Source: an uncultured Chloroflexia bacterium
GTDB taxonomy: Bacteria; Chloroflexota; Limnocylindria; Limnocylindrales; CSP1-4
Length of the DNA: 64,000 bases
Assembly: GCA_963752475.1 (NCBI GenBank)
Contig: CAVVYR010000007.1
Location: 576,001 to 640,000 of the forward strand
Direction of reading: 5' to 3'
A program made the translations under genes and the position numbers. This document shows, piece after piece, positions 9 to 16,343 of this stretch; the stretch's first letter is position 1; each line of letters begins with the position of its first letter. A model generated the notes under the pieces. That model searched no databases and was not told where the DNA came from. It saw only the letters and a program-made list of their open reading frames with translations.

Positions 9-1043
9 GTGGTCGCTGAGGGCATGCGTTCGCTGCTGCCCGCTGATCTGGCGGCCGTGCCGGCAGTAGTGCCGAACGCAATGCTGGCGGGCACTCGCGT
101 GCTCACGACCGGCCACGAGAACCCGGATGCGGATGCCGTCGGTTCGGCGCTGGGCATCGCGCTCGCGCTGGAGTCGCTGGGGGCTCAGGTCGAGACCGTC
201 TTCGCCGACCCGGTGCCCGCGATGTACGACTTCATGCCCGGTATCGAGCGAGCCCGCACATCGGTCAGCGCGAGCCTGGACCCCGATCTCATCGTCGTGT
301 GCGATGGCGACCTTTCGCGGACCGGAGCCGTGCTGCAGGAGAACGCGGAGCTCTTTGGGCGCGTGCCCATCGTGAACATCGATCACCACGTCTCCAACAG
401 CGGCGAGCACGGCGTTGCCTGGGTCGATGCCGATGCGGCGGCAACCTGCGAGCAGGCCACGCTGCTGCTGCCGGCGCTCGGGCTCGGGTTCGACGCCGCC
501 GGTGGCGACATCGTGCAGCTGCTGACCGCGGGCCTCGTCTTCGACACTGCCAACTTCGCCCACTCCAACACGACCCCGCGCACGCTGCGCGTGGCCTCCG
601 AGCTGGTCGCCGCCGGGGCCGACCTGCCGATGATCGCCCGACGCATCTACCGCACCAAGCCGAACGCGCAGCTCAAGCTCTTCGGGCGCGTGCTCTCGCG
701 CCTCGAGACCTCCGTCGATGACCGGGTGACCTGGTCGGTCGTGACGCTCGACGACTTCGCCCGAGCCGGCGCGACGCAGGAGCAAGCCGAGGGCCTCATC
801 GACTTGCTGGGGCAGTCGGCCGGCGCGGACATGGCGATCTTGTTCAAGGATCTCGGTGATGGCGTGCGCATCTCCATCCGTACCCGTGATGGCGGTGTCG
901 ACGCCACACGGCTCGCGGGCGCCTTCGGGGGTGGCGGGCATGCACGGGCGGCGGGCGCCAGCCATGAAGGTCCGTTGGAGGACGCCCGTGAGGCGGTCCT
1001 GGGCCTGGCGGAGCAGTTGCTCGACGAGCTTCCCGCTACCTGA
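9..1043 (+). CDS. nrnA: DHH/DHHA1 phosphoesterase (NrnA-like nanoRNase/pAp phosphatase); start may lie outside the window
   Basis: HENPDADAVGS, NIDHH and C-terminal GGGGHARAAG motifs; directly upstream of truB. Confidence 0.88.
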   Translation: MVAEGMRSLLPADLAAVPAVVPNAMLAGTRVLTTGHENPDADAVGSALGIALALESLGAQVETVFADPVPAMYDFMPGIERARTSVSASLDPDLIVVCDGDLSRTGAVLQENAELFGRVPIVNIDHHVSNSGEHGVAWVDADAAATCEQATLLLPALGLGFDAAGGDIVQLLTAGLVFDTANFAHSNTTPRTLRVASELVAAGADLPMIARRIYRTKPNAQLKLFGRVLSRLETSVDDRVTWSVVTLDDFARAGATQEQAEGLIDLLGQSAGADMAILFKDLGDGVRISIRTRDGGVDATRLAGAFGGGGHARAAGASHEGPLEDAREAVLGLAEQLLDELPAT

Positions 1044-2017
1044 TGGGACGTCGCCGCCGCGATGACGGCCCGCGCATCGACGGCATCCTCGTCGTCTCGA
1101 AGCCGGCCGGGCCGACCTCTCACGACATCATCGACACCGTCCGTCGCCTGACCGGCGTCCGGCGCGTGGGTCACGGCGGGACGCTCGATCCGTTCGCCAT
1201 GGGTGTGCTGCCGGTGTTCATCGGCAGGGCCACACGTATGGTCGACTACCACCGCTTCGACTCCAAGGCCTACCGCGCCTCGGTCGTCTTCGGGGCCGGC
1301 TCGAGCACCGATGACATCGACGGCGAGATGACGCCGGGTGAGGCTCCCGTGCCCGACCGGGCTACGGTCGAGGATGCCCTCCCCGCCTTCCGCGGCGAGA
1401 TCGAGCAGATCCCGCCGGATCACTCGGCGGTCCACGTCGGCGGCAAACGAGCCTATGAGCTGGCACGGGGAGGGGAGAAACCCGAGCTCAAGCCTCGAAA
1501 CGTGACCATCCACTCGTTGGAGCTGACCGAATGGGACACGGCTGATGTCGATCGCCCGATGGCCGTGCTCGACGTCAACTGCAGCGCCGGCACCTATGTC
1601 CGCTCGATCGCCCGTGACCTCGGCCGGCAGCTCGGGTGCGGTGCCTATCTGGGGGCGCTCACGCGCACGGCCAGTGGTCCGTTCGAGCTGGGGTCCGCGC
1701 ACTCCCTGGAGCATGTCCGAGCCGAGCTTGCGGCCGGCAACCTTGAGTCGTTGCTGCTCTCAGCCGATGCCGGTCTCGATCACATCCCGATGGTGTGCAT
1801 CCCCGACTCCGATCGTGAGGCCATCGCCCGCGGCCAGATCATCCGCGTCCGCGGCGAGGTATCCGGTCCGGTCGACCCGGCGGTCGTCCTCGAGAGCGCC
1901 GAAGTGGTACGCGTGCTCGATGGGCGTGGATCGCTTGCAGCGATGGCCCATGTGGCCAAGGGTCGGCTATACCCTGACAAGGTCTTCATCACCCCGGAGG
2001 ACCTCAAGGAAGCATGA
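1043..2017 (+). CDS. truB: tRNA pseudouridine(55) synthase
   Basis: KPAGPTSHD, GHGGTLDPFAMGVL, CSAGTYVRS motifs. Confidence 0.96.
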   Translation: MGRRRRDDGPRIDGILVVSKPAGPTSHDIIDTVRRLTGVRRVGHGGTLDPFAMGVLPVFIGRATRMVDYHRFDSKAYRASVVFGAGSSTDDIDGEMTPGEAPVPDRATVEDALPAFRGEIEQIPPDHSAVHVGGKRAYELARGGEKPELKPRNVTIHSLELTEWDTADVDRPMAVLDVNCSAGTYVRSIARDLGRQLGCGAYLGALTRTASGPFELGSAHSLEHVRAELAAGNLESLLLSADAGLDHIPMVCIPDSDREAIARGQIIRVRGEVSGPVDPAVVLESAEVVRVLDGRGSLAAMAHVAKGRLYPDKVFITPEDLKEA

Positions 2018-2967
2018 TCGACTACGTCCGTGGCATCGACCGGCTGCCCAAGGACACCCGTCTGGCGGTCACCATCGGCGTCTTCGATGGCGTGCACCGC
2101 GGCCACCAGCAGGTCTTCAAGGTGCTGGAGGAGACCGCGCGCCGCGTCGGGGCCATGCCCGTGGCCGTGACCTTCGATCCCCATCCGGATGCGGTCGTGG
2201 CCGGCCAGGCGCCGGACATGCTCATGGATCGCCGCGAACGCATCGAACGCATCAGTCGCCTCATCGGTGGCTACGTCGTATTGCAGACCTTCGACGAGGT
2301 CTTCCGGCGTACCACGGCCGAGGAGTTCGTGGAGCGCATCGGTGGCGGCCGCAACCTGGCGGCGCTGGTGATGACGCGCGTCTCGGCTTTCGGGCGGGAC
2401 CGTGCCGGCACCGTCCCGGTGTTGCGCGAGATGGCCAAGACGGCCGACTGGGAGCTCGTCGAAGCGCCGACGCTCGACTCGGGTGGAGCGCGGGTATCGA
2501 GTGCCCGTACCCGTCAGCTGGTGGCCGAGGGCCAGCTGCAGACGGCCAGAGAGCTGCTCGGGCGGCCGTTCGCGCTGGTGGGCTCGGTGGTGCACGGTGA
2601 GCAGCGTGGCCGCGAGCTGGGCTTTCCCACGGCCAACCTCGACTTCGGTCAGCCGGTGGCGCTACCGCCAGATGGCATCTATGCCGCCCGTGCATCATGG
2701 GGCGGCCCGGCCGTGCTCGATCCCTTCGACATGGCCGACGCTGTCATCTCGCTCGGTACCCAGCCGACCTTCGGTGGCCGGGTGCGGCTGATGGAGGTCC
2801 ACCTCCTCGACCGCGACGAAGATCTCTACGGTAAGCGCATGCGCGTGCAGTTCTGCACCTTCATCCGCGGCCAGCGGCGCTACGACTCGGTCGACGAGCT
2901 CATCGTGCAGATGGGCCACGACGTCGACCGCGCCCGCAAGAAGCTCGACGCCTGCGAGGCCTGCTGA
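2014..2967 (+). CDS. ribF: Bifunctional riboflavin kinase/FAD synthetase
   Basis: IGVFDGVHRGHQ, GRELGFPTAN, EVHLLD; ATGA overlap with truB. Confidence 0.95.
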   Translation: MIDYVRGIDRLPKDTRLAVTIGVFDGVHRGHQQVFKVLEETARRVGAMPVAVTFDPHPDAVVAGQAPDMLMDRRERIERISRLIGGYVVLQTFDEVFRRTTAEEFVERIGGGRNLAALVMTRVSAFGRDRAGTVPVLREMAKTADWELVEAPTLDSGGARVSSARTRQLVAEGQLQTARELLGRPFALVGSVVHGEQRGRELGFPTANLDFGQPVALPPDGIYAARASWGGPAVLDPFDMADAVISLGTQPTFGGRVRLMEVHLLDRDEDLYGKRMRVQFCTFIRGQRRYDSVDELIVQMGHDVDRARKKLDACEAC

Positions 2968-3007: not shown

Positions 3008-3892
3008 CTAGACGAGGCGCGCCTGCAGTACGCGACAGACGAGGCGGGCGAGTGCCGTCGCCGAGGTCCCGTCAGGGTCACGCTCGGGCTCGAACTCGGT
3101 CACGACCATGCCCTCGAGGGAACCACGAGCGGCTAGGGCGACGAAGAGGTCGCCCAACACATCCACGCCGGGTCCGCCGGCAACGGGCGCACGCACAGCC
3201 GGGATGTCGGCCGGGTTCGTGCCGTCCACGTCGTAGACGATGACGAAGCGCTCACCCTCGACGAGGCGACCCGCGACCGCCTCCAGCCCGTCTCGCGCCA
3301 GTTCGCGCGCTCGGACGATGACGTTGCCGGCCTCGATCGTGTCCTGCACATCCGCGGGCCGGGCCGAGCCGACGCCGCGCTGGCCGACGTGGACGATGCG
3401 CCGCACCCAGCTCATCTCGCTCGCCCGACGCATGGGGCTGCTATAGCCGTGTGACTCGCCACCGACCTCATCGCGGAAGTCGAGGTGGGCATCGATCTGC
3501 ACGACCGTCACCGGACCATGATCACGCCAGCCGGCCACGAACGGCTCCGCCACCGAGTCGTCCCCGCCGAGGAGCAGCGGCATCGCTCCCTGGTTCACGA
3601 CCGAACTCACCGCGGTCGTGATGCGACGGCGGTTGCCCTCGGCATCGGCGCGAACGGTGTTGATATCGCCGCCATCGCCGACCAGCCGACGCCATGAGGC
3701 AAAGGGTCCATCGATATCGAAGTCGTAGTTGCCGGTGAAGAGTGCCAGTCGCCATGTCGCCGCCCGGAGCGCAGACGGGCCTTCGCTCGCGTGAGGATGT
3801 CGGTCTGGGTAGACCGTCGCCATCGCGGCTCCCAGTACCACCGCTTCACTCGATGTGGTGGGCGCTCCGACGCCCATGAACGTCTCAGTCAT
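3008..3892 (-). CDS. hutG: Arginase/ureohydrolase-family protein, probable formimidoylglutamase
   Basis: GGDDS, DAHLD, DVD metal-binding motifs; last gene of the hutU-hutH-hutI cluster; start set at MTETF overlapping the hutI stop. Confidence 0.65.
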   Translation of the reverse strand: MTETFMGVGAPTTSSEAVVLGAAMATVYPDRHPHASEGPSALRAATWRLALFTGNYDFDIDGPFASWRRLVGDGGDINTVRADAEGNRRRITTAVSSVVNQGAMPLLLGGDDSVAEPFVAGWRDHGPVTVVQIDAHLDFRDEVGGESHGYSSPMRRASEMSWVRRIVHVGQRGVGSARPADVQDTIEAGNVIVRARELARDGLEAVAGRLVEGERFVIVYDVDGTNPADIPAVRAPVAGGPGVDVLGDLFVALAARGSLEGMVVTEFEPERDPDGTSATALARLVCRVLQARLV

Positions 3893-5066
3893 CGGTCTCC
3901 CCTCCGTACCATGTCCACAGTGGCCGAACACCTCCGAGTCGCTGGACGAACGCCCCTTCGTGCTCGGCGTCCCAGGCGACGAGGTCAGCGTACGCCCCCG
4001 GCATGAGCCGTCCGATCTCGCCGTCGAGGCCGAGGGCCCCGGCCCCGCCGGCGGTCGCGGCCCAGACCGCCTCATCGATGGTCAGTCCGAGCACCGTCCC
4101 AAGCCCTACCGCGAGCGGCATCGACGGCTCACCGAAGGTGCCCGCGTTGGCATCGCTGGCCAACGCCACCGTCGCGCCGGCGTCGACCAGCGCCCGTGCC
4201 GGAGGCAGCCCGGCGCCCAGCATCAGGGCCGGTCCCGGGAGCAGCGTGGCCACCGTCGTCGAGTCGGCCAGCACCCGCGCGTCGTCCTCGGTGATCTGCT
4301 CGAGATGGTCGACCGACAACGCGCCCAGCTCGGCACCCAGCAGTGCCGCCCCCGATCGCTGCAACTGGTCGGCATGCAGCTTGAGCGGTAGCCCGTTGGC
4401 AGCGCCGGCTTCGGCGATGGCGCGGGTCCAGCCGAGGTCGAAGATGTCCGGCTCACAGAAGACGTCGATGTGGTCGGCGGCATCGGCCATCTCCGGCAGC
4501 GTCTCGAGGATGGCCTCGTGCTGCGTCTCGGCATCGGACTCGACAGGGATGGCGTGCGCTCCGAGGTGCGTCCGCCGCACACGCATCGGCAGCCCGTCGG
4601 ACGCCACGGCGATGAGGTTGAGCAGACGCAGCTCCTGGGTGGGTTCGAGCCCGTAGCCGGACTTGACCTCGATGGTCGTGGTGCCCCGGGCGAGCGCGGA
4701 CAGCAGACGCAGCCGCGTCTCGCGCACCAGCTCCTCATCGCTGGCCTCGACCGTGGCCTCGACGGTGCGCAGGATGCCGCCGCCGGCATATCGCTGGCCA
4801 CGGGTCCGGGCCGCCGCCTCGTCGCTCCGGTCACCCGCGAAGATGAGGTGCGTGTGCGAGTCGACGAGCCCCGGCGTCACGAGCGCGGTTCCGACATCCT
4901 CGACGATGTCAGGGTCTTCCGGCGCCAGTTCCCCCGGCCTGGTCTCGAGGATCCGCTCGCCCTCGACCACGAGCACCCACGGACCGTCGATGGCACCGGT
5001 CTCGCCCGTTCGCGCGCCGTCCATCGGCAGCAGGCGGCCCCGTCCGATGATCGCGTGCCGGTTCAT
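3885..5066 (-). CDS. hutI: Imidazolonepropionase
   Basis: PGLVDSHTH, TTIEVKSGYGL, KLHADQL, SVDHLE motifs. Confidence 0.93.
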   Translation of the reverse strand: MNRHAIIGRGRLLPMDGARTGETGAIDGPWVLVVEGERILETRPGELAPEDPDIVEDVGTALVTPGLVDSHTHLIFAGDRSDEAAARTRGQRYAGGGILRTVEATVEASDEELVRETRLRLLSALARGTTTIEVKSGYGLEPTQELRLLNLIAVASDGLPMRVRRTHLGAHAIPVESDAETQHEAILETLPEMADAADHIDVFCEPDIFDLGWTRAIAEAGAANGLPLKLHADQLQRSGAALLGAELGALSVDHLEQITEDDARVLADSTTVATLLPGPALMLGAGLPPARALVDAGATVALASDANAGTFGEPSMPLAVGLGTVLGLTIDEAVWAATAGGAGALGLDGEIGRLMPGAYADLVAWDAEHEGAFVQRLGGVRPLWTWYGGETDD

Positions 5067-6676
5067 CGCGGATCCGGTCCCAACCAGGAGGTGCTGACTG
5101 TGGCGGCTGCGCCGGCCAGGTCCACCAGCGCTGCCTCGTGCACGAGCCGATAGGCTGCTTCGAGGTCAGGCCCGGGCTCACGGTCCTCCTCGAGCCGGGC
5201 GATCGTCGCTCGGACCCGCGCGTGGGCTTCTGCCACGCCGACCCCGGGGGTGGTCTCCGGCTGCAAGTCGAGCCGCAGGTCGAGGCCCTGCGATGCGCAG
5301 ATGACTTCGATGGCCACGATGCGCTCCGAGTGCTCAAGCACGGCCATGGCGTTGCGTGCCGCGATGGAGCCCATCGAGACATGGTCCTCCTGGTTGGCCG
5401 AGGTGGGGATCGAGTCGGCCGAGGCGGGGTGCGCCAGCGTCTTCGATTCCGATGCCAGGGCCGCGGCGGTGTACTGCAGGATCATCAACCCGGAGTCCAA
5501 CCCCGACGAAGCACCCAGGAAGGCCGGCAGCCCGTCGTTGAGTCGCGGGTCCAGCAGCAGCGCCACGCGTCGCTCGCTGATGGCACCGATCTCCGCGATG
5601 GCCAGCTTGGCGTAATCGAGCGCGAGAGCGATGGGTTCGCCATGGAAGTTGCCACCGCTGATGACCAGGCCGCGGCCGGTGGCCAATGCGTCCTCGGGCA
5701 CGGCCCCACCCTCGGGGAAGACGAGCGGATTGTCGGTGGCCGAGTTGAGCTCGATGTCGAGGACACGACGGAGGTTGTCGAGCGCATCGCGAGCGGCGCC
5801 ATGGACCTGCGGCACGCACCGCAGGGAGTACGGATCCTGGACACGGTGGTCGTCGCCATGGTGTGCGGTCTGGATGGTCGAGTCGCGCAGGAGCCAGCGC
5901 AGCTCGGCTGCGGTCTGTACCTGGCCCGGGTGTGGGCGGGTCGACTGCAGCGCGGCCGAGTAGGCCACGTCGGTACCACGCAGCGCCTCCACCGAGATGG
6001 CGGCGGCCACGCTGGCGGTGCGCGCCAGGCGGTCGGCTCCGGCCAGCACCAGCGCGCCGATGGCGCCCATCATCTGCGTGCCGTTGAGCAGGGCCAGCCC
6101 TTCCTTGGGCTCCAGCACCAGCGGGTCGAGCCCTGCCGTCATCAGCGCCTGTCGTGCGGGCATGACAGCGCCTTCGACCTCCACCCGGCCCTGACCGATG
6201 ACCGGCAGCGCGAGATGGGCGAGGGGAGCGAGATCACCCGACGCCCCGACGCTGCCCTGCGAGGGCACGACCGGGTGGATGCGCAGTCGCAGCAGCTCCA
6301 GTAGCCGTTCGATGAGCTCGGGTCGGCAGCCGGAGTGGCCGAGGGCCAGCGTGTTGGCACGCAACAGGAGCATCGCGCGCACGACCTCGGTCGGCAGTGG
6401 TTGGCCCACGCCGGCGGCGTGGCTCAGCAGCAGCCGCTCCTGCAACTCCCGGGCGCGCTCGGGTGGCACGAAGGTCGTGGCCAGCGAGCCGAAACCGGTG
6501 GTGACGCCGTAGACGACCTCACCCGAAGCCACCAGTCGCTCGATGACCGCACGGGCCTCGGTCACTCGCCGGCGCGCGCCACCGTCGAGCACGGCATAGC
6601 GTTCTCCGCGCGCGACCGATTCGACGTCGGGGACGGACAGTTCTGCGCCGTTGAGCACGACGGGGGCAGCCGTCAT
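5063..6676 (-). CDS. hutH: Histidine ammonia-lyase
   Basis: [11 protein letters not shown]-forming [28 protein letters not shown]; start MTAAPV overlaps the hutU stop. Confidence 0.96.
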
Positions 6677-8337
6677 CGTTCGCCCAGCATCGGGATGGCG
6701 ACGCCGCGCTCGCGTGCGACCTCGACCGCCCGTTCGTAGCCGGCGTCGACGTGACGCACGACGCCCATGCCCGGGTCCGTGGTGAGCACGCGCTCCAGCT
6801 TCCGCGCCGCCAGGTCGGTGCCGTCCGCGACGGCGACCATGCCGGCATGCTGGCTGTAGCCGATACCGACGCCGCCACCGTGGTGGATGCTGACCCAGCT
6901 GGCCCCCGCGGCGGTGTTGACGAGCGCGTTGAGCATGGGCCAATCGGCGACTGCGTCCGAGCCGTCCTTCATGGCCTCCGTCTCCCGGTTGGGCGAGGCC
7001 ACGGAGCCTGAATCGAGGTGGTCACGACCGATGACGATGGGTGCGCTCACAGCACCAGAGCCGACGAGGGCGTTGAAGACGCCCCCGGCCAGCCGTCGCT
7101 CCCCGTAGCCGAGCCAGCAGATGCGCGAAGGCAGTCCCTGGAAGGCGACATGGTCCTGGGCCTTGCGGATCCAGCGCGCGAGCGATGCGTCCTCGGGGAA
7201 GAGATCGAGGATGGCCTCGTCGGTGGTGCGGATATCGGCCGGATCTCCCGAGAGCGCGACCCAGCGGAAGGGCCCCTTGCCTTCGCAGAAGAGCGGCCGG
7301 ATGAATGCTGGCACGAAGCCGGGGAAGTCGAAGGCGTTATCGACACCACCGGACTGCGCTTGCGCCCGGATGTTGTTGCCGTAGTCGAAGGTCACCGAGC
7401 CTGCGGCCTGCAGCTCGAGCATCGCACGCACGTGCGCGGCCATCGACCCGACCGAACGACGGGTGTACTCGTCGGGGTCGGCGGCGCGGAGCTCCGCGGC
7501 AGCCTCGAGCGTCAGGCCGGCGGGCACGTAGCCGTTGAGCGCATCGTGGGCCGAGGTCTGATCGGTGACGGCATCGAAGCGCTCGCCACGTCGCACCAGC
7601 TCGGGCTCGACCTCGGCGGCGTTGCCGATGAGCCCGATCGAGAGCGGCTCGCCGGCGGCAGCCGCCGCCCGAGCCCAGCGCAGGGCTTCATCGAGATCGC
7701 CGGTCGAGCGGTCGAGGTAGCGTGTGTCGAGGCGCTTCTGGACGCGCGACCGATCGACCTCGATGCAGAGAGCCACGCCGTCGTTCATCGTCACCGACAG
7801 CGGCTGGGCGCCACCCATGCCGCCGAGGCCGGCCGTGAGCACGACGCGGCCACGCAGCGTGCCACCGAAGTGCTGGCGCGCCAGCTCGGCGAAGGTCTCG
7901 TAGGTGCCCTGAAGGATGCCCTGGCTGCCGATGTAGATCCAGGAGCCGGCGGTCATCTGGCCGTACATCATCAGGCCGGCCCGCTCGAGCTCGCGGAAGT
8001 GCTCCCACGTGGCCCACTTGCCCACGAGGTTGCTGTTGGCGATGAGCACCCGCGGGGCCCACTCGTTGGTGCGGAACACGGCCACGGGCTTGCCGGAGGC
8101 CACCAGCAGCGTCTCGTCGTCCTCGAGCCGGCGCAGTTCGCGCACGATGGCGTCGAAGGCCTCCCACGATCGAGCGGCGCGGCCGGTGCCGCCGTAGACG
8201 ACGAGGTCGTCGGGTCGCTCGGCCACCTCGGGATCGAGGTTGTTCATGAGCATGCGCAGCACCGCTTCCTGCTGCCAGCCACGGCAGCTGAGCTCCGTCC
8301 CGCGAGGGGCCCGGACCGGTCGTGCGCCGCTGCTCAT
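6673..8337 (-). CDS. hutU: Urocanate hydratase
   Basis: [38 protein letters not shown]; AGGAGG SD before ATG at 8337. Confidence 0.97.
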
Positions 8338-8696
8338 CGTGTCGCTGCCTCCTGTCGCCGACAGCGTATCGCGTCGCTTCTCGCGGGGCTTGCCGTAGGC
8401 GAGCCCACCGGATACGGTCCGGCGCCACCCGCACCCCACGGTGACCCGCACCGCGATGTATCCAGGGAGAGCGCTCGAGCGGATCGGCTGGCAGGTGGCT
8501 GGCCGCACCATGGCTTTGCATGCTCGTCGGGAATCGGTCACAATGGTGGGCACGAACCGACGAGCGCCCGCGCATCTTCACTGACCATGCGGCGTTACGC
8601 CGGCTTCTAGTGTGGCTGTAGCACGGCCTATCCTGAGACTGTGTGCTATGCTGCCGCGCGTAACAGACAAGGTATATGGATAGGCTGGAGGACCAG

Positions 8697-8966
8697 TTGC
8701 CGCTTACGCGGGAAACGAAGGCAAGCGTCGTTGCCGACTACGCCACCAAGGAAGGTGACACCGGATCGCCGGAAGTCCAGATCGCGCTCCTGACGGAGCG
8801 GATCGGTGGGCTGACCGAGCATCTCCGACGCTACCCCAAGGATCATCACTCGCGCCGCGGCTTGCTCAAGCTCGTTGGCACGCGACGCCGCCTGCTTGCG
8901 TATCTCATGCGCAAGGACGCTGCCCGCTACCAGACCGTCATCGAACGGCTCGGCCTGCGCCGCTAA
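8697..8966 (+). CDS. rpsO: 30S ribosomal protein S15
   Basis: [23 protein letters not shown]; TTG start behind GGAGG. Confidence 0.97.
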
Positions 8967-9098
8967 GGCGAAACGGCCCTGGCGGGCGCGGCCCGCTCGG
9001 TATCGGCACATCGCATACGCCAGAAGACCTCGTGTGAGGTCAGCGTAGACAACAACCCAACGCGCCCCGGTCCGTCGGTCGTCCCCGTTGGAGGACAG

Positions 9099-11696
9099 AT
9101 GACGGTAACCACCCTTACGACCGAATTCGGCGGTCGCACGATCACCATCGAGACTGGCAAGATGGCCAACCTCGCTGGTGGCTCCGTGACCGTGCAGTAC
9201 GGCGACACCATGCTGCTCGGTACGGCCAACCGTGCCAACCCCCGCCCCGGTCTCGACTTCTTCCCGCTCACGATCGATTTCGAGGAGCGGATGTACGCCG
9301 CGGGCAAGATCCCCGGCGGTTTCATCAAGCGTGAGGCCCGCCCGTCGGAGGCGGCCATCCTCGCGTGCCGCCTGACGGACCGTCCCATCCGCCCGCTCTT
9401 CCCCAAGGGCTACAAGGACGACGTCCAGTGCGTGCTCACCGTGCTCAGCACGGATCAGGAGAACAACCCCGACGTCATCGGCACCATCGCCGCGTCGGCT
9501 GCACTGACCATCAGCGAGATCCCGTTCCAGGGCCCCATCGGCGCTGTCCGCATCGGCCGCATCGATGGCGAGTTCGTGGTCAATCCGCTGGCCAGCCAGA
9601 TGGAGGAGTCGGAACTCGACCTCATCGTCGCCGGCACCGCTGACGCGATCATGATGGTCGAGGCTGGCGCCAAGATCCTGCCCGAGGACGTGATGGCTGA
9701 CGCGATCATGTTCGGCCACGAGTCCATCAAGCCCGTGATCGAGCTGCAGGAGCAGCTGCGCGAGCTGGTGGGCAAGGCCAAGCAGATCCCCTACATCGAG
9801 CCGTCCGTCGACTCTGTCGTCGACTTCGTGGACGCGGTAGATGCGGGCGAGTCCTTCGTCGTCTTCGACACCGAGACGACGAGCAAGGACGCCAGGACCG
9901 GCGAGCTCGTCGAGATCGGCGCCGTGCGCCTCTCCGGCGGCAAGGTCACCGACACCTTCGAGACGCTCGTCAAGCCCACTCGCGGCATCGTCGGCAACCA
10001 GATCCACGGCATCACCAACGCTGACGTCGAGGGCGCGCCCAGCCCGGCTGAGGCGGCTGCCCAACTCCTCGACTTCGCCGGCGACGACATCCTCGTCGGT
10101 CACAACGTCGGCTTCGACATCGGCTTCATCGAGGCCGCTCTGGCGGACGGGACCCGCATCGAGCCGGGCACCTACCTCGACACGCTCGTGATCGCGCGTG
10201 CCGGCTACCCCGATCTTGACGCTCACAAGCTGGGCGACCTGGTCGAGTTCTTCGGGCTCGACGTCGATCCCAAGCATCGCGCCCTGGCCGATGCCGAAGC
10301 CACCGCGGCCCTGCTCCAGGGCATGGCCGAGGACATCCCCGTCCGCGTCAACGCGTTCAAGTCGGCCGTCGCTGACACGATCCGCATGCGCAAGGGCGGC
10401 GACAACAACGACGTCGCAGACGCCGCCTTCGAGGCTGCGCTCGTGGCCTCCGGCCTGTCGAAGGGCTTCACCACGTTGCTGCACAAGAAGACCGTGCGTG
10501 AGGTCACCCTGGCCGAGGGTATCCGCATCGATGGTCGTGACGTGGACACCATCCGTCCCATCTCGGTCGAGGTCGGCCTGCTGCCGCGGGCCCACGGCTC
10601 CGGTCTCTTCACCCGCGGTCAGACGCAGGCGCTCACCGTGGCCACGCTTGGCCCTTCGAGCGACGTGCAGCGCATCGACACCATCAGTCCCGAAGAGTCG
10701 AAGCGCTACCTGCACCACTACAACATGCCCCCGTACAGCACCGGCGAGAACAAGTTCATGCGCGGCCCCGGCCGTCGTGAGATCGGCCACGGTGTCCTGG
10801 CGGAGCGCGCACTCCTGCCGGTCCTGCCGTCACAGGAGGAGTTCCCCTACGTCCTCCGCCTCGTGAGCGAGTGCGTCACCTCCAATGGCTCCACCTCCAT
10901 GGCCTCGACCTGCGGCTCGACGCTGGCACTGATGGACGCGGGTGTGCCCATCAAGGCACCTGTCGCGGGTGCGGCCATGGGTCTCATCACCGACGGCGAG
11001 GACTTCGTGGTCCTGACCGACATCCTCGGCAAGGAGGACTTCTTCGGTGACATGGACTTCAAGGTCACCGGCACCGAAGAGGGCGTCACCGCGCTCCAGA
11101 TGGACATCAAGGTCAAGGGCATCAACGAGGACATCATCCGCCAGGGCCTTCAGAAGGCCTACACGGCGCGCATGACCATCCTCGACAAGATGACCGAGGT
11201 CATCGGCGAGGCCCGTGAGGATGTCAGCGACTTCGCGCCGCGCATCACCACCATCAAGATCAACCCCGAGAAGATCCGCGACATCATCGGCAAGGGTGGT
11301 GCCACGATCCGCAAGATCCAGGAAGAGACCGGGACCGAGATCAACGTCGAGGACGACGGCAGCGTCGAGATCGCCGCGGTCGACCAGACCAAGTCGGCCA
11401 AGGCCATCGAGTGGATCGAGTCGATCACCAAGGAGGTCGAGGTCGGCGGGCTGTACCTGGGCAAGGTCACCCGCATCATGGGCTTCGGCGCCTTCGTCGA
11501 GATCCTGCCGGGCAAGGAAGGCCTCGTTCGCATCGGCGAGCTGGCTGACTACCACGTCCCCACCGTCGAGGACGTCGTCCAGGTCGGCGACGAGATCATG
11601 GTCGTGGTCATCGAGATCGACCGCCAGGGTCGCGTCAACCTGAGCCGCAAGGCCGCCATGCAGCGGCACCAGGCCAAGGAGGATGCGGAGGCCTAG
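9099..11696 (+). CDS. pnp: Polyribonucleotide nucleotidyltransferase with an inserted DEDDh exonuclease domain
   Basis: PH1 (DFFPLT, GKIPGGFIKRE, DRPIRPLF), PH2 (RREIGHG, SNGSTSMAS, DFFGDMDFK), KH (IIGKGG) and S1; extra domain at about aa 253-408 with DTETT/HNVGFD/HRALAD. Confidence 0.97.
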   Translation: MTVTTLTTEFGGRTITIETGKMANLAGGSVTVQYGDTMLLGTANRANPRPGLDFFPLTIDFEERMYAAGKIPGGFIKREARPSEAAILACRLTDRPIRPLFPKGYKDDVQCVLTVLSTDQENNPDVIGTIAASAALTISEIPFQGPIGAVRIGRIDGEFVVNPLASQMEESELDLIVAGTADAIMMVEAGAKILPEDVMADAIMFGHESIKPVIELQEQLRELVGKAKQIPYIEPSVDSVVDFVDAVDAGESFVVFDTETTSKDARTGELVEIGAVRLSGGKVTDTFETLVKPTRGIVGNQIHGITNADVEGAPSPAEAAAQLLDFAGDDILVGHNVGFDIGFIEAALADGTRIEPGTYLDTLVIARAGYPDLDAHKLGDLVEFFGLDVDPKHRALADAEATAALLQGMAEDIPVRVNAFKSAVADTIRMRKGGDNNDVADAAFEAALVASGLSKGFTTLLHKKTVREVTLAEGIRIDGRDVDTIRPISVEVGLLPRAHGSGLFTRGQTQALTVATLGPSSDVQRIDTISPEESKRYLHHYNMPPYSTGENKFMRGPGRREIGHGVLAERALLPVLPSQEEFPYVLRLVSECVTSNGSTSMASTCGSTLALMDAGVPIKAPVAGAAMGLITDGEDFVVLTDILGKEDFFGDMDFKVTGTEEGVTALQMDIKVKGINEDIIRQGLQKAYTARMTILDKMTEVIGEAREDVSDFAPRITTIKINPEKIRDIIGKGGATIRKIQEETGTEINVEDDGSVEIAAVDQTKSAKAIEWIESITKEVEVGGLYLGKVTRIMGFGAFVEILPGKEGLVRIGELADYHVPTVEDVVQVGDEIMVVVIEIDRQGRVNLSRKAAMQRHQAKEDAEA

Positions 11697-11733
11697 CGCC
11701 TCGCGCCCCTGGCGCACTCACGCAAGCGACATG

Positions 11734-12052: not shown

Positions 12053-13141
12053 TCAGTGGGCCGGCTCGGGCCCCTTGAGTGCAGCTTCGTAGACGTCGCG
12101 CGTGGCATCGGCCACGCGCTCCCAATCGAAGCGTGAGAGGTCGGCGGCGTTGTGGCGCCCCATGGCCTCGAGGTCCACATCCATCGCGGTTCGCAGTGCG
12201 CCCTCGAGGCCCTGCGGGTCGTCCGCGTCGTAGAGGATGCCGCCCTGCTCGTCGAGCACATCGGTGACACAGCCACGACGGGGCGCGATGACGGCCCGTT
12301 CGAAGGACATCGCCAGCAGCACCGAGCCGCTGGTGAAGATCTCGAGGAAGGGAGCGGCGACCACGTCCGCGGCTCGCAGGTAGAGCTGCAGGTCGTCGTC
12401 CTCGACGAACCCGAGCGAGAGATGGATGCGTTCATCGCCCTTGGCCGCGGCCGTCAGGCGTGCGGCGTAGGCACCGTCTACGGCCTGGCCCGCGATGACC
12501 AGGCGGGCGTCCGGCTCGTCGAGCTTGGTGAACGCCTCATACAGCTCCCACACGCCCTTGTAGCTGCGGACCCAGCCCACGAACGAGATGACCTTGGCCT
12601 CTGCGGGCAGGCCCAGCCGGTCTCGGGCCTCCTCGCGCGTGACGTCGTCGGCGTAGGCGCCTTTGTAGTGGCCGTGGGGGATGATGGCGATCTTCGCCCG
12701 TCCGGCCTCGCCGACGCCGAGCGTCTGGAGCAGCCCATCGGCGGCGGCACTGCAGTGGACGATGACCGTGTCCACCAGTTCGAAGAGCGAGCGCATGAAG
12801 GCCAGCTCGTTGGGATCCTCACGCCTGTCGTGGCGGAAGAGGTCGTGAGCCGTCCACACCAGGCCGATGCCACTGCGCTTGGCTAGTCGCAGCTCCACGA
12901 GGGTGCGTTTGGCTTTCACCCGGCTGACCTTGCTGCTCCCGCCGGCGATGTAGGGCTCGGTCCAGTGGATATGGAGGACGTCCGGTCGGCCGTGGCGCCG
13001 CAGCGCTTCCACGACGGGCAGCACGCGCCGCGATCCGGTGGGGTCGGCGCTGACGCTGACTCCACGCGACTCCAGCCCATCGGTGAGGGCGCGCTGGTAG
13101 GCATTGGCGGCCGAGTAGTCGGGCAGGAACAGGACCTTCAC
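12053..13141 (-). CDS. Glycosyltransferase family 4 (GT-B)
   Basis: HIHW, WTAHD, GWVRSYKG, TSGSVLLAMSF; GTG start at 13141. Confidence 0.85.
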   Translation of the reverse strand: MKVLFLPDYSAANAYQRALTDGLESRGVSVSADPTGSRRVLPVVEALRRHGRPDVLHIHWTEPYIAGGSSKVSRVKAKRTLVELRLAKRSGIGLVWTAHDLFRHDRREDPNELAFMRSLFELVDTVIVHCSAAADGLLQTLGVGEAGRAKIAIIPHGHYKGAYADDVTREEARDRLGLPAEAKVISFVGWVRSYKGVWELYEAFTKLDEPDARLVIAGQAVDGAYAARLTAAAKGDERIHLSLGFVEDDDLQLYLRAADVVAAPFLEIFTSGSVLLAMSFERAVIAPRRGCVTDVLDEQGGILYDADDPQGLEGALRTAMDVDLEAMGRHNAADLSRFDWERVADATRDVYEAALKGPEPAH

Positions 13142-13149
13142 TGGCTGGA

Positions 13150-14454
13150 TCAGACTCCGATGTCGTCGTACACGCGCAGCAGCTCCCGGGCTTGATGCTG
13201 CCATGCGTAGCGGGTTCGAGCAGCCTCGAGGCAGCGCATACGCAGTGCGAGACGCTCGTCCTCGGGGGCATCGATGATGTCACGGATGGCCCGGGCCACG
13301 TCGGCTGGATCGGTCGGATCGCAAAGCACGCCGCACCGGGTCTCGTTGACGATGGGGCTGATGCCGGGCAGCTTGCTGGCCACGACCGGCACACCCACGC
13401 CGATGGCGTCGTACAGCTTGGTCGGCGTGTTGAAGCGATGGTTCAACGTGTCGGGCTGGACCGGCATGGCCGAGACATCGGCACCTCGCGTCCACTCGGG
13501 GATCTCCGCCGGTGACACCGAGCCCGCGAAGTGGATGCGGCCGGCGTGCGGGAGAGCGGCCGCGATGGTGCGGTAGCGCTCGTAGTCCGGCCCATAGCCG
13601 GCGACCACGAGGTCCGCATCGTCGATGAGCGAGATGGCCTCGAAGAGCTGTCGCAGGCCGCGTCCGCGCATGACCTGGCCGATGTAGAGCACGATCCGCC
13701 GATCCCGCGACAGCTCGAACAGCGCATGGAAACGGTCGGTCCGCGCCACGTCGTCCGGTCGGACCTCCATCTCCAGGTCATCGACCAAGGCGGCGTTGCG
13801 GACGACGGCGTCGACGGGTCGCCCGAGCACGCGCTCGAGGATCTGGGCGTAGGGATCCGAGACGGTGACGACGGCGTCAGCCGTGCGCGCGAGCCGCTTC
13901 TCGTGGCGGCGGAGCAGTTGCTTCCACGGTCCCGGCAGGCGGGCCATGCGACCGGCCTCGCTGTCGATGTCGTTGGCGTCATAGACGATGATGCCTCCGA
14001 AGTGCTCGCGCAGCGACACGGCTAGTGAGAGGGTGATGACCGACTCGGCCTGCCACACGTCGAAGCCGTCGACCTGCTCCGCGATGATCTTCGACCAGGC
14101 CCGCGACATGCGCAGGTAGCGCAGGGCCTGGATCGCCCGACCCACGCTGTCGCGGACACGACGACGCAGGCCGCCGAGCCGTCCGTGCGGGTCGTCACCC
14201 GTCTCGGGCAGGCTCGGGGCCGGCAGCCACGAGAGCGGCTGCGGCTGACGGATGCGCGTGACCGTGTGGTGCTCGAGCTTCTCGGTCGTGGCCAGCCCGG
14301 CGCCCCAGCGGGCGATGACGGTCACCTGATAGCCGGCCCGACCGAGCGATTCGGCCGTCTTCCAGGCACGCGCGTCAGCCTCGTAGGTGTTGTTGATGAG
14401 GATGGCCACGCGGGCGGGTGCGTGGCGGGCGGCGGCAGCGTCGCGATTTACCAT
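13150..14454 (-). CDS. Glycosyltransferase family 4 (GT-B)
   Basis: DARAWK, IIVYDAND, YIGQVMRGRG, NTPTKLYDAIGVGVPVV; ATG at 14454 (the longer ORF is the antisense shadow of asd). Confidence 0.85.
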   Translation of the reverse strand: MVNRDAAAARHAPARVAILINNTYEADARAWKTAESLGRAGYQVTVIARWGAGLATTEKLEHHTVTRIRQPQPLSWLPAPSLPETGDDPHGRLGGLRRRVRDSVGRAIQALRYLRMSRAWSKIIAEQVDGFDVWQAESVITLSLAVSLREHFGGIIVYDANDIDSEAGRMARLPGPWKQLLRRHEKRLARTADAVVTVSDPYAQILERVLGRPVDAVVRNAALVDDLEMEVRPDDVARTDRFHALFELSRDRRIVLYIGQVMRGRGLRQLFEAISLIDDADLVVAGYGPDYERYRTIAAALPHAGRIHFAGSVSPAEIPEWTRGADVSAMPVQPDTLNHRFNTPTKLYDAIGVGVPVVASKLPGISPIVNETRCGVLCDPTDPADVARAIRDIIDAPEDERLALRMRCLEAARTRYAWQHQARELLRVYDDIGV

Positions 14455-14544
14455 TCCACGGTAGCGTAAGGAGCGCCGAGGGAGCGTAGTAGACGCGTTA
14501 TCATCGTCCCGTGCCCTCGATGGAAGATCCACAGGAATAGCACC

Positions 14545-15612
14545 ATGCCCATCGAGTCCCCCCACCGCCCCCTCACTGTCGCTGTCGTCGGCGCTACCGG
14601 TCTGGTGGGACGAACCATGACCGACATCCTCGCGGAGCGGGACTTCCCGGTCGGTGAGCTGCGCCCGTTGGCGTCCCGTGCCGGCGACCGCACCGTCCAG
14701 TTCGGCGGGCGTGAGTACCCGGTCCGGGTCGCGACCCCTGAGGCCTTCGAAGGCGTGGACATCGCCATCTTCAGCGCCGGTGGCGGGACGTCCGCGGCGC
14801 TCGCTCCCGAGGCCGCAGCCCGCGGCGCGGTGGTCGTCGACAACAGCAGCCAGTGGCGGATGGAGCCGGGCGTGCCGCTCGTGGTAGCGGGCGTCAACGA
14901 CGACGACGCCGCGCAGCACGAGGGCATCATCGCCAACCCCAACTGCTCCACGATGCAGTTGATGCCCTTGTTCAAGGCGCTGCGCGACAGCGTGGGCATG
15001 AAGCGCGTCATCGTCGACACGTATCAGGCCGTCAGCGGTAGCGGCAACAAGGCCGTGGTCGAGCTGGAGGACCAGGTCAGGGCCTTCGCCGCGGGCGAAG
15101 AGATGGAGGCCTCGGTCTATCCGTACCCCATCGCCTTCAACGTCCTGCCCCATATCGACGTCTTCCTCGACAACGGCTACACCAAGGAGGAGTGGAAGGT
15201 CACCGTCGAGACGCGCAAGATCCTGCACCTGCCGGACCTGCCGGTCTCGTGCACGGCCGTGCGCGTGCCTGTGGTCACCTCGCACTCGGAGGCGGTCCAT
15301 GTGGAGCTGCAGGGCTCCATGTCCCCGGACGAGGCGCGCGAGTTGTTCGCCGCTGTCCCTGGTGTGATCGTCAAGGACGACCCCGCCAACGACGTCTATC
15401 CGCTGCCTACCGACGGCGCCGGTGTGGACGAGGTCTTCGTCGGGCGTATCCGCGCCGACGCCTCGCTGCCACCCGGGAAGGGCCTGGCCTTCTGGGTCGT
15501 CTCGGACAACCTGCGCAAGGGCGCTGCCACCAACGCCGTCGAGATCGCCGAGGTCGTGGCCCGCAACGGCTGGCTCAAGAAGGCGTCCGAACGCGCTGCC
15601 GAGGTCGCGTGA
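14545..15612 (+). CDS. asd: Aspartate-semialdehyde dehydrogenase
   Basis: VVGATGLVG, IIANPNCST, YQAVSGSG, DNLRKGAA. Confidence 0.96.
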   Translation: MPIESPHRPLTVAVVGATGLVGRTMTDILAERDFPVGELRPLASRAGDRTVQFGGREYPVRVATPEAFEGVDIAIFSAGGGTSAALAPEAAARGAVVVDNSSQWRMEPGVPLVVAGVNDDDAAQHEGIIANPNCSTMQLMPLFKALRDSVGMKRVIVDTYQAVSGSGNKAVVELEDQVRAFAAGEEMEASVYPYPIAFNVLPHIDVFLDNGYTKEEWKVTVETRKILHLPDLPVSCTAVRVPVVTSHSEAVHVELQGSMSPDEARELFAAVPGVIVKDDPANDVYPLPTDGAGVDEVFVGRIRADASLPPGKGLAFWVVSDNLRKGAATNAVEIAEVVARNGWLKKASERAAEVA

Positions 15613-16343
15613 CGAGCGAGGAACGCGCTGCCGCACTGGAGGCTGTCGCGAGCGAAGTCCGTGACTGCACGCGCTGTCGCCTGGCAGAGGGCCGCACCAA
15701 GGCCGTCCCGGGGGAGGGCAGTCCCGAGACCGAGGTCGTGTTCGTGGGTGAGGGCCCGGGACAGAACGAGGACCGCCAGGGGCGACCGTTCGTGGGCGCT
15801 GCCGGCAACCTCCTGCAGGACCTGCTGGGCATGATCGGATGGAGGCGCGAGGACGTCTTCATCACCAACGTCGTCAAGTGCCGCCCGCCCAACAATCGCG
15901 ACCCTGAACCCGACGAGATCGCCGCCTGTCAGCCGTTCCTGCGGCGACAGCTGGAGATCCTCGACCCGGCGCTGCTGGTCACGCTGGGCCGGTTCAGCCT
16001 GCAGACGTTCATGCCTGGCGATCGCATCAGCCGCGTGCACGGTACCGAACGAGCCATCGACCCCGCTACCGGGGCCCGTGCCGCGACCGGCTACGCCCTC
16101 TACCACCCCGCCGCGGCCCTGCGGCAGGGCTCGCTCAAGGAGACGATGCAGCGCGACATGGCGCGCGTGCCCGAGGTGCTCATCCGCGCCCGAGCCGAAC
16201 GCGCCCCCGCCGAAGCCGCTCCCGAGTCGGAGCCCGAGACCACATCGCCGGCGCCTGCTGAGGCGTCACCGACCAATGAGAACCAGGAACCCCATGAGGA
16301 TGAACCCATGAAACGATCCGACGACCAGTACGGTCTCTTCTGA
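15609..16343 (+). CDS. Family 4 uracil-DNA glycosylase ([4Fe-4S])
   Basis: CTRCRL, GEGPG, KCRPPNNRDP, YHPAA; GTGA overlap with asd. Confidence 0.92.
   Translation: MTSEERAAALEAVASEVRDCTRCRLAEGRTKAVPGEGSPETEVVFVGEGPGQNEDRQGRPFVGAAGNLLQDLLGMIGWRREDVFITNVVKCRPPNNRDPEPDEIAACQPFLRRQLEILDPALLVTLGRFSLQTFMPGDRISRVHGTERAIDPATGARAATGYALYHPAAALRQGSLKETMQRDMARVPEVLIRARAERAPAEAAPESEPETTSPAPAEASPTNENQEPHEDEPMKRSDDQYGLF

Follow-up and report, generated by a model that had tools for sequence, protein, structure and literature searches.

The rpsO-pnp Locus and the Domain Layout of PNPase

The window (the whole 64,000-nt stretch of DNA that was analyzed) carries a pnp gene directly downstream of rpsO (Table 1), the native setting already recognized in a preliminary description of this DNA made from the sequence alone. 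The product is a genuine single-chain PNPase with a complete DEDDh module between its PH domains; the preliminary description had placed this exonuclease at 9855–10325, which are exactly the positions of residues 253–409. Profile searches recovered the four domain types that it had listed for checking (RNase_PH, RNase_T/DEDDh, KH, and S1). RNase_PH (PF01138, E = 3.2e-51) and RNase_PH_C (PF03725) each match in two stretches, and the match to TIGR03591 (polyribonucleotide nucleotidyltransferase), which scores 953.8 bits (cut-off 525), is split in two by the insert. The RNase_T profile (PF00929) is matched end to end (positions 1–164 of 164) by residues 254–406 (E = 1.5e-30; 107.4 bits, cut-off 24). 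Pfam found no helicase domain (DEAD_2 or Helicase_C_2) and no polymerase, PHP, or GIY-YIG domain in the pnp open reading frame.

Table 1. Features of the rpsO-pnp region and the upstream DHH-family gene (positions in the window; aa, residues of the pnp product)
Feature	Position	Strand	Evidence
NrnA-like DHH/DHHA1 protein (candidate nanoRNase)	9..1043	+	PF01368, PF02272; followed by truB, ribF
rpsO (ribosomal protein S15)	8676..8966	+	Pfam Ribosomal_S15, E = 8.7e-35; adjoins pnp on its upstream side
pnp, 865-aa PNPase with embedded DEDDh module	9099..11696 (stop codon included)	+	Open reading frame, translation, TIGR03591
RNase PH domain 1, aa 1–228	9099..9782	+	PF01138 at 12–142, PF03725 at 145–208
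N-terminal helix/linker of module, aa 229–252	9783..9854	+	Not in canonical sister PNPases (f3/f5 alignment)
DEDDh (DnaQ-like, PF00929) exonuclease domain, aa 253–409	9855..10325	+	PF00929 match, fold model
ExoI, D257-T-E259	9867..9875	+	D257, E259 invariant in 104/104 full-length homologs
ExoII, H335-N-V-G-F-D340	10101..10118	+	H335, N336, D340 invariant in 104/104
ExoIII, H393-R-A-L-A-D398 (the "h" of DEDDh)	10275..10292	+	H393, D398 invariant in 104/104
Reduced all-helical domain, aa 410–475	10326..10523	+	AF2 secondary structure, pLDDT 83–96
RNase PH domain 2 with phosphorolytic site, aa 476–705	10524..11213	+	Second PF01138 stretch
KH domain, aa 717–774	11247..11420	+	PF00013 (KH_1), E = 7.4e-12
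S1 domain, aa 780–851	11436..11651	+	PF00575, E = 2.2e-16

The motifs LVGKAK, RREIGHG, SNGSTSMAS, and EDFFGDMDFK are all present in the translation; the last three lie in PH2 and are what we take to be its phosphate- and metal-binding catalytic motifs. Residues R559, R560, G563, H564, G565, and N596–S603, as well as D647, D651, D653, F654, and K655, are invariant in all 54 aligned sequences, and together with the Pfam and TIGR03591 matches they bear out the earlier reading of an intact phosphorolytic site, KH domain, and S1 domain. From residue 233 onward, the linker that precedes the exonuclease domain falls within PolC-type NCBIfam matches (NF001688, 233–414), and it contains a helix at 238–248 in the structure model.

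No promoter-like site was found within 8400–12100, folding of the rpsO-pnp spacer does not stand out from that of its shuffles (z = -0.33), and no Rfam match reached the gathering score anywhere in the window. Two 151-nt contigs from an RNA-library run (X7) are identical to positions 10371–10521 and 10578–10700; they are no evidence of transcription because DNA carry-over is possible and the DEDD segment is uncovered.

Predicted Structure of the Module

An AF2 model of the protein gives residues 240–480 a pLDDT of 83–96, and the module modeled alone reaches 89; the mean for the full-length model is only moderate (70.4), with parts of the PH cores at low confidence. Foldseek places the module next to the solved folds of Staphylococcus aureus DinG exonuclease, PolC, DnaQ, and epsilon (probability 1.00; rmsd 2.5–2.9 Å over 164–174 columns), and the full model recovers PNPases only. 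In the model the ExoIII helix extends unbroken as helix 395–430 and is followed by helices 437–451 and 455–473, so that the module is tied to the helical domain by a rigid helical connection. The helical domain itself appears to be shortened to this three-helix remnant (395–473), part of it having apparently been replaced by the module.

In solved PNPases the helical domain is reported to occupy the trimer face opposite that of KH/S1 and to line the pore leading to the active site (PMC2723993), and therefore the trimer should bear three hydrolytic sites on the helical-domain face. The side of the ring proposed in the preliminary description is thus supported by the model and by the geometry of solved PNPases. 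For self-association of the module, a complex prediction with three copies of residues 229–470 gave scores of 0.28 and 0.00, the mark being 0.42, and is no evidence either way.

Distribution in the Limnocylindria and the Phylum

The families of the class concerned (Chloroflexota records named Candidatus Limnocylindria) are labeled f1 to f5 here. Of 8000 candidates scored in a protein search, 423 matched at E ≤ 1e-3, and the best 120 all combine PF00929 with PF01138. When the class was scanned with residues 229–460 as the query, 385 of 401 genomes had a match (176/177 high-quality genomes), including every f1 (137/137) and f2 (16/16) genome and 143 of 153 in f4; the matches in f3 and f5 are the DEDD domain of DinG, outside pnp, in the four genomes checked. 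A contiguous match from the DEDD domain into PH2, sought across a phylum sample, was present throughout f1 (23/23), f2 (4/4), and f4 (16/16), and was found in neither f3 genome (0/2) nor in any other family (0 of ~355, by subtraction). The pnp product is canonical, at ~737 aa, in three f3 genomes (G001, G004, and G016) and one f5 genome (G013). The same architecture thus recurs in three families, and like the preliminary description, which knew of no such characterized PNPase, we found no PNPase with an embedded DEDDh domain described in the literature that we searched. The lineage belongs to the abundant uncultured Chloroflexota of soil and freshwater, and its insert-bearing members include streamlined genomes of ~1.1 Mb.

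Origin and Conservation of the Insert

The 22 inserts group together in a tree of DEDD domains (SH-aLRT 98), in a single clade that divides into f4 and f1. A tree of the PNPase C-terminal part, without the insert, recovers the insert-bearing clade (100) as sister to the canonical PNPases of f3 and f5 (100) within the class (96), all 26 outgroup PNPases being canonical, and the two trees are congruent. Almost certainly, then, the architecture is real and has a single origin, and one ancient insertion with vertical inheritance is indicated by these sequence comparisons. A complete DnaQ-like DEDDh module of ~185 aa (residues ~231–415) thus entered pnp a single time, where the helical linker has its N-terminal edge, in the last ancestor shared by f1, f2, and f4; its descent since then has been vertical, and purifying selection has maintained it.

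The alternatives of a chimera made in assembly or binning and of a late horizontal acquisition private to this genome are refuted on several counts and retain next to no probability; nothing was found in their favor. The junctions are the same in hundreds of independent assemblies, among which G179 and G090 are single-contig genomes, and contigs from other runs pass through both of them without a break or an indel, which together exclude a chimera. The codon style of the insert is that of its host gene, as had been claimed: the DEDD segment has a GC3 of 0.904 and the remainder of pnp one of 0.905, the module (aa 229–475) and the remainder correlate at r = 0.966 in their within-family codon fractions, and no step in GC was seen along the gene. 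The congruence of the insert and PNPase-core trees also stands against a recent transfer.

The DinG exonuclease of the class itself was considered as a source and rejected, its domain being a separate clade (SH-aLRT 99) in the other half of the tree, of which the backbone is weakly supported. An HMM of the insert scores these DinG exonucleases at 92–118 bits, below PolC exonucleases at 140–154 bits. Nearest to the insert in the tree are a 271-aa protein with RNase_T only and a 349-aa protein with RNase_T and YunG (SH-aLRT 85), followed by PolC-type and GIY-YIG-fused DEDD proteins.

The five DEDDh residues (D257, E259, D340, H393, and D398), together with H335 and N336, all numbered correctly in the preliminary description, are invariant in the 104 full-length homologs (104/104), and are kept even in f4 homologs with 37–40% identity across the module. 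Inactive DEDD domains usually lack these catalytic residues. For the closest pair dN/dS is 0.134 in the DEDD domain, 0.128 in PH1, and 0.171 in PH2; the ratio was read for this pair only, as dS is ~0.5–0.7 at every distance and the ratios of distant pairs are uninterpretable because synonymous sites are saturated. We regard it as highly probable that the DEDDh site is catalytically active. The invariance of its residues stands against a structural or regulatory domain without catalysis, such as a 3'-end or nucleotide sensor gating the pore for phosphate or NDP, or a docking surface that stands in for degradosome partners, even though the module takes the place of part of the helical domain, which is reported to affect PNPase activity and pore access (PMC2723993). 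We regard a silent role as very improbable.

Comparison with Known Systems

Canonical PNPase (TIGR03591; 5yjj, 3cdi, 4am3, and 7ogk) has the same order of PH1, helical linker (putative here), PH2, KH, and S1, shares the phosphorolytic motifs and the rpsO-pnp locus, and is 40–60% identical outside the insert; 5yjj aligns by query residues 7–245, on the PH1 side, and 461–855. The protein described here differs by ~185 extra residues, which form the DEDDh nuclease where the helical domain begins, and by an apparently shortened helical domain that falls under the cut-off of the all-alpha linker profile PF03726 (18 bits against 24.6, residues 459–481 only).

The top Foldseek matches of the module are DinG exonucleases (S. 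aureus 8zef/9ii8, with relatives in Listeria and Bacillus subtilis; E ~1e-11 over 203 aligned columns). Firmicute-type DinG has the same DEDDh motifs, and is likewise a hydrolytic 3'-5' exonuclease fused to a motor or processing enzyme of nucleic acids; its reported targets are ssDNA, rRNA precursors, and R-loop RNA (PMC12774634, PMC12525004). The host protein is PNPase here and an XPD-like helicase in DinG, and the pnp inserts group apart from DinG exonucleases, those of the sister families included. At the sequence level the best relatives are the PolC exonuclease, the epsilon subunit of Pol III, and PRK07883-type DEDD proteins (with GIY-YIG): the insert matches NF005906 (E = 1.1e-44), NF001688 (E = 1.2e-35), and 2p1j (E = 7.4e-24), fits the PolC fold with an rmsd of 2.5 Å over 164 columns, and has only PRK07883, PolC, DinG, and epsilon models among the best 25 of its 69 NCBIfam matches. 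In PolC a DEDDh domain is likewise set inside a domain of another enzyme; these relatives, however, are proteins of DNA replication and repair. Orn and RNase T share the DEDDh superfamily with the module and RNase T is among its Foldseek matches (E ~5e-8), but neither occurs in the best 25 of the 69 NCBIfam matches. Both are homodimers, in which the dimer builds the substrate site.

The eukaryotic RNA exosome pairs a PH-like ring with hydrolytic Rrp6 (DEDD) and Rrp44 (RNB), and the analogy with it drawn in the preliminary description stands as a principle, that of a PH-domain ring joined to a hydrolytic 3'-5' exonuclease. It is a loose one. Here the ring is predicted to be catalytically active and the nuclease is part of the same polypeptide, with three copies expected, and of the DEDDh type, whereas Rrp6 is DEDDy. 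On the exosome, Rrp6 occupies the cap side; the module is expected on the face opposite the RNA-binding cap, the side of Rrp44 and away from that of Rrp6. The assemblies are not homologous and the resemblance is at most convergent.

Other Nucleases in Insert-Bearing Genomes

The class scan for the helicase part of DinG gave strong matches in 51 of 53 f3 genomes and in the f5 genome (1/1), and elsewhere only weak ones (f1 1/46, f4 1/53; f2 0/7). The f3 proteins consist of a DEDD domain fused to an XPD-like helicase, an arrangement present in 53 of 81 genomes across the phylum. No DinG was found in G000, G038, G179, G011, G003, or G090. The insert-bearing clade lost DEDD-DinG on the branch where the insert arose, a coincidence that amounts to one branch (n = 1); DinG is also absent from insert-free Chloroflexota families (f18 0/7, f21 0/4, f17 0/2). 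Covariation of the insert with loss of RNase II/R was likewise considered and rejected: no RNB protein was found in 161 class genomes, and the lack is unlinked to the insert because it is class-wide and includes canonical f3 (0/53).

Beyond pnp we found no further PF00929 match and no PF01612 match in G000, absences that are provisional because this genome is 88.8% complete. The module is not always the sole domain of its kind, as additional small DEDD genes occur in G011 (one) and G179 (two, weak).

A built-in oligoribonuclease that hydrolyzes the 2–5-nt limit products beside the product side of the ring, the first possibility named in the preliminary description, would suit a module on the face that lines the pore to the active site, and would suit G000, in which neither an Orn/RNase T-type gene nor another PF00929 match was found; Orn is reported to belong to the DEDDh enzymes (PMC9779919). 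This idea is weakened because the NrnA-like gene in the window (Table 1) is class-wide with or without the insert (96/101: f1 29/29, f2 4/4, f3 29/33, f4 32/33, f5 1/1). The module is moreover of the PolC/epsilon/DinG type by its NCBIfam matches, RNase T ranks below DinG, PolC, and epsilon in Foldseek, and canonical f3 lineages get by without the insert. We consider a nanoRNA-finishing role improbable.

A role on the DNA side only, in repair, relief of replication stress, or proofreading-like editing of 3' ends, with PNPase serving as a scaffold already present at ssDNA ends and R-loops, is doubtful to the same degree. It would agree with the DNA-directed nature of the closest relatives (PolC exonuclease, epsilon, GIY-YIG-fused DEDD proteins, and DinG exonuclease), with the loss of DinG from the same clade, and with G000, G003, and G090, in none of which a free dnaQ-like gene was found; PNPase of B. 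subtilis is reported to act as a 3'-5' ssDNase with roles in repair (PMC2709576, PMC3241651). However, free dnaQ is missing from f3 as well, where the DinG copy is the only DEDD protein of G001, and proofreading is thus independent of the module. The KH/S1 channel of PNPase handles RNA, and DinG-type DEDD domains are reported to attack RNA also (PMC12774634, PMC12525004).

Proposed Function

Rather than either of these roles, we favor an active Mg-dependent, phosphate-independent 3'-5' exonuclease that would add a second chemistry for 3' ends which the phosphorolytic ring handles poorly or only given phosphate. Candidate substrates would be unprocessed 3' tails of rRNA and tRNA, RNA in RNA:DNA hybrids, and ssDNA ends, substrates of the kind reported to be attacked both by PNPase and by the DEDD nuclease of DinG from Firmicutes. 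The Listeria DinG exonuclease is reported to clear unprocessed rRNA and to act on both DNA and RNA (PMC12774634), B. subtilis DinG to degrade the RNA of hybrids and R-loops (PMC12525004), and B. subtilis PNPase to degrade R-loop RNA (PMC13251995). A second chemistry may suit this lineage, where no RNase II/R was found and DEDD-DinG disappeared on the insert branch. A general part in trimming 3' ends or in their quality control, with the DinG exonuclease replaced in part, is a possible role that we would stop short of calling probable. The explanation as a whole, a fixed ancient PNPase variant whose active hydrolytic exonuclease widens the reach of the enzyme, is the best available and is put forward tentatively, at not quite an even chance.

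A bolder version would have the phosphorolytic ring mechanistically coupled to three DEDDh sites on its exit face as a self-contained bacterial "mini-exosome." Ring and DEDDh sites would then pass on stalled, structured, or very short 3' ends, such that one polypeptide might take RNA from polymer to mononucleotides and also clear R-loop RNA in a lineage lacking RNase II/R and DEDD-DinG. It would then have converged on the eukaryotic pairing of a PH ring with a hydrolytic nuclease. We think this unlikely.

Implications

PNPase is among the most conserved and best-studied enzymes of RNA decay, and its domain plan is usually taken as fixed. In these Limnocylindria a second, hydrolytic nuclease appears to have been kept within it since before the families split, even in genomes of ~1.1 Mb, and the protein would give biochemists and structural biologists a compact exonuclease of dual chemistry to work on. 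Should its two activities cooperate, it would be a natural experiment on the division of labor between phosphorolytic and hydrolytic 3'-5' decay, on the purpose of the poorly understood helical domain and pore, and on whether PNPase and DinG-type nucleases can share substrates such as rRNA precursors and R-loops.

Domain composition and conservation

The 865-aa PNPase (P0001) comprises two RNase_PH and two RNase_PH_C domains, KH_1 and S1, with an RNase_T domain (PF00929; E=1.5e-30, 107 bits against a Pfam cut-off of 24) between its PH halves. NCBIfam calls the whole protein TIGR03591 (polyribonucleotide nucleotidyltransferase; 953.8 bits, in two stretches), and the best matches of the middle part are DEDD-exonuclease models: PRK07883-type (E=1.1e-44), PolC (E=1.2e-35), DinG (E=1.8e-30), and epsilon. 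These profile matches, which cover each of the four domain types expected, bear out the preliminary description of a PNPase with an inserted DEDDh domain, and all of its motifs and residue numbers proved correct in the translation and homolog alignment. The insert also has the codon style of its host gene, as had been claimed: its DEDD segment has a GC3 of 0.904 against 0.905 for the remaining pnp sequence, and codon fractions correlate (r=0.966) between the module (aa 229-475) and the remainder.

Features of the window and loci of short-frame modules in other genomes
Feature	Position	Strand	Remark
NrnA-like DHH/DHHA1, truB, ribF	9..2967	+
NrnA-like DHH/DHHA1 gene	9..1043	+	ahead of truB, ribF
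Histidine-utilisation block, four genes	3008..8553	-	between ribF and rpsO-pnp
Arginase-family gene	3008..4075	-
Amidohydrolase	3885..5066	-
Aromatic amino acid lyase/HutH-like gene	5063..6943	-
Urocanase	6673..8553	-
rpsO	8676..8966	+	precedes pnp ORF
pnp, 865-aa ORF	9099..11696	+	translation, Pfam
DEDD segment	9855-10325		exactly aa 253-409
RNase_T (PF00929)	aa 254-406 of pnp product		Pfam
KH_1	aa 717-774 of pnp product		Pfam
S1	aa 780-851 of pnp product		Pfam
GT4-family glycosyltransferase	12053..13204	-	Pfam Glycos_transf_1/Glyco_transf_4; downstream of pnp
828-aa ORF	13150..15636	-	downstream of pnp
Short-frame module	G152:C1:2220237-2220839		class scan
Short-frame module	G375:C3:1627007-1627624		class scan
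Short-frame module	G357:C71:4168-4779		class scan

As the HutH-like and urocanase ORFs overlap by ~270 nt when read from their longest-ORF starts and their Pfam matches do not begin until aa 102 and aa 80, translation probably initiates further in.

The residues D257, E259, D340, H393, and D398, together with H335 and N336, are invariant in 104/104 full-length homologs (121 proteins retrieved, less 17 partial ones outside 840-900 aa) and in a 13-row module alignment reaching down to family f4 at 37-40% identity. PNPase catalytic motifs are likewise invariant in 54/54 sequences. For the closest pair, both of one genus, the DEDD segment has a dN/dS of 0.134, compared with 0.128 for PH1 and 0.171 for PH2; the estimate rests on this pair because dS is saturated in farther ones. 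The module is most likely an active, phosphate-independent 3'-5' exonuclease; a module that has kept its fold and not its catalysis is possible at lower odds.

Recurrence in independent assemblies

Among 8000 scored candidates, 423 proteins match a query of aa 225-470 at E<=1e-3; a search for the architecture had been proposed in the preliminary description. PF00929 and PF01138 occur together in all 120 matches listed, the best of the 423; these are mostly 860-870 aa long and come from NCBI, ENA, JGI, and Logan assemblies, the named ones being Chloroflexota or Candidatus Limnocylindrales. Five short contigs with a Limnocylindria-type pnp (L067, L080, L089, L110, and P0082) are labelled Patescibacteria, Verrucomicrobiia, Polarisedimenticolia, Steroidobacteraceae, and Sulfotelmatobacter. 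Since L110 falls within the f4 insert clade of the DEDD-domain tree, they look like binning errors rather than transfers.

The source genome (G000; 4.25 Mb, 38 contigs, 88.8% complete, 5.8% contamination) has one pnp. Contigs from other public sequencing runs, compared over window 9600-10700, span both junctions, the PH1-to-module junction by records of X1 (9669-10021; possibly the source sample and hence not independent) and X3 (9666-9851), and the DEDD-to-helical junction by an X3 record (10092-10417). These contigs run through with no reported joint or indel.

The open frame that holds the module is short in three f1 genomes (429, 663, or 635 aa, where most others have ~860-1000 aa). A contig end, a frameshift, or an indel from sequencing could explain it; G152, one of the three, is a single-contig genome.

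Distribution and origin of the insert

Within the class Candidatus Limnocylindria, 385/401 genomes and 176/177 of high quality match the module (aa 229-460): all of f1 (137/137) and f2 (16/16; genomes ~1.1 Mb) and 143/153 of f4, with weak matches outside pnp (E about 1e-15 to 1e-24) in f3 (86/92) and f5 (2/2). Some unpublished genomes are included in these tallies and in those of the DinG helicase and NrnA-like gene below, and the conclusions are independent of them. In three f3 genomes (G001, G004, and G016) and one of f5 (G013), pnp is canonical (~737 aa), aligning to aa 1-232 and 448-855 only, and the DEDD domain lies N-terminally in a DinG-type protein of 890-1040 aa (PF00929, DEAD/DEAD_2, Helicase_C_2). 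Across a phylum sample of 401 genomes, a contiguous match from DEDD into PH2 (aa 246-520, E<=1e-30) was found only in the source genome, f1 (23/23), f2 (4/4), and f4 (16/16), and was absent from f3 (0/2) and other families (0/~355 genomes, by subtraction). The scan of named genomes agrees with the protein search on where the insert occurs.

When the C-terminal half of PNPase is used for a tree (50 rows, insert left out), the class comes out as monophyletic (SH-aLRT 96), with canonical f3+f5 (100) as sister to the insert-bearing clade (100), which splits into f4 (99) and f1-type (100). All outgroup PNPases (26/26) are canonical; one outgroup row, L150 (from G435), is unpublished and the conclusions are independent of it. 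In the DEDD-domain tree (95 domains) the 22 pnp inserts form a single clade (98) with the same f4/f1 split. The agreement of both trees with the distribution indicates a single insertion event, on the stem leading to f1+f2+f4, and vertical inheritance since. Derivation from the class's own DinG exonuclease was rejected on the DEDD-domain comparison.

Four non-PNPase relatives of the module (P0134, P0136, P0144, and P0157; 618-1631 aa) have tandem DEDD domains, the module being matched in 2-3 stretches.

Structure models

In the alignment, the linker from GKPK to RPDGR is ~85 aa long in the canonical sister enzymes versus ~250 aa in insert-bearing pnp. PolC-type family matches already start at aa 233, placing the module at roughly aa 231-415. 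The whole-protein AlphaFold2 model is of moderate quality (mean pLDDT 70.4, pTM 0.68), with aa 240-480 at pLDDT 83-96. It predicts a helix (238-248) ahead of the DEDD alpha/beta core, whose ExoIII helix runs on unbroken as helix 395-430 and with helices 437-451 and 455-473 forms a three-helix remnant of the helical domain. Folded alone (pLDDT 89, pTM 0.86), the module shows the same elements. Among solved structures it comes closest to S. aureus DinG (9ii8, 8zef), PolC (9qrn, 9qpc; rmsd 2.5 A over 164 columns), a Cas-associated DnaQ domain (8h2f), Pol III epsilon (2ido), and the T. maritima PolC exonuclease (2p1j); RNase T and Exo X come after DinG, PolC, DnaQ, and epsilon.

Two stretches in the RNase PH cores (aa 47-107 and 494-562) are modelled at very low confidence despite strong conservation, probably owing to the shallow, closely related 54-row alignment, and the whole-protein model is therefore unfit for ring geometry. 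The E. coli PNPase helical domain is described as lying on the torus face opposite KH/S1 and as helping to form a pore. This pore is a further way to the active site, believed to carry phosphate and NDP and not to be where RNA enters (PMC2723993). By analogy, a trimer would carry three DEDDh sites on the helical-domain face opposite KH/S1.

Other nucleases and the probable loss of DinG

In the source genome, pnp is the sole match to PF00929, and neither PF01612 (RNase D/NrnC-type) nor RNB was matched. RNB (RNase II/R) was found in none of 161 Limnocylindria genomes searched (112 of high quality), while 11/14 control genomes matched; a tie between this absence and the insert was rejected, the canonical f3 also lacking RNB (0/53), which makes it a class trait. 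PF00929 matches number one each in G090, G003, and G001, two in G011, and three (two weak) in G179.

The NrnA-like gene occurs throughout the class (f1 29/29, f2 4/4, f3 29/33, f4 32/33, f5 1/1), so a candidate nanoRNase is present with or without the insert; a module devoted to nanoRNA is a possible, less probable reading.

The DinG helicase part matches strongly in f3 (51/53) and f5 (1/1); the insert-bearing families have a single weak match in f1 (1/46), another in f4 (1/53), and nothing in f2 (0/7). Whole-DinG searches of six insert-bearing genomes (G000, G038, G179, G011, G003, and G090; G179 and G090 are single-contig) matched the pnp DEDD domain alone. As DEDD-DinG is present in 53/81 phylum genomes, it is probably ancestral and would have disappeared on the same branch on which the insert arose. 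This coincidence is that of one branch (n=1), and other families have neither DinG nor insert (f18 0/7, f21 0/4, f17 0/2).

Proposed function

The DEDD nuclease of Firmicute DinG is reported to degrade ssDNA and RNA and, in Listeria, to remove unprocessed rRNA (PMC12774634); that of B. subtilis digests the RNA strand in hybrids and in R-loops (PMC12525004). B. subtilis PNPase itself is reported to degrade R-loop RNA (PMC13251995) and ssDNA 3' ends (PMC2709576, PMC3241651). Because these activities overlap, PNPase and a DinG-kind DEDD nuclease share substrates, R-loop RNA and ssDNA among them; action on DNA only is possible with lower probability.

Full-text searches of openly accessible articles, exclusive of supplementary files, turned up no account of a PNPase carrying a DEDD domain within it, and automatic annotation names the insert-bearing proteins PNPase or 'DNA polymerase III epsilon subunit family exonuclease'. 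Two well-known domains are joined here in an undescribed, clade-defining, and evidently functional combination. Its substrate and any coupling with the ring we can only infer; as an active exonuclease, the module would let the PNPase particle trim or finish more kinds of substrate in a lineage where other 3' exonucleases are few.
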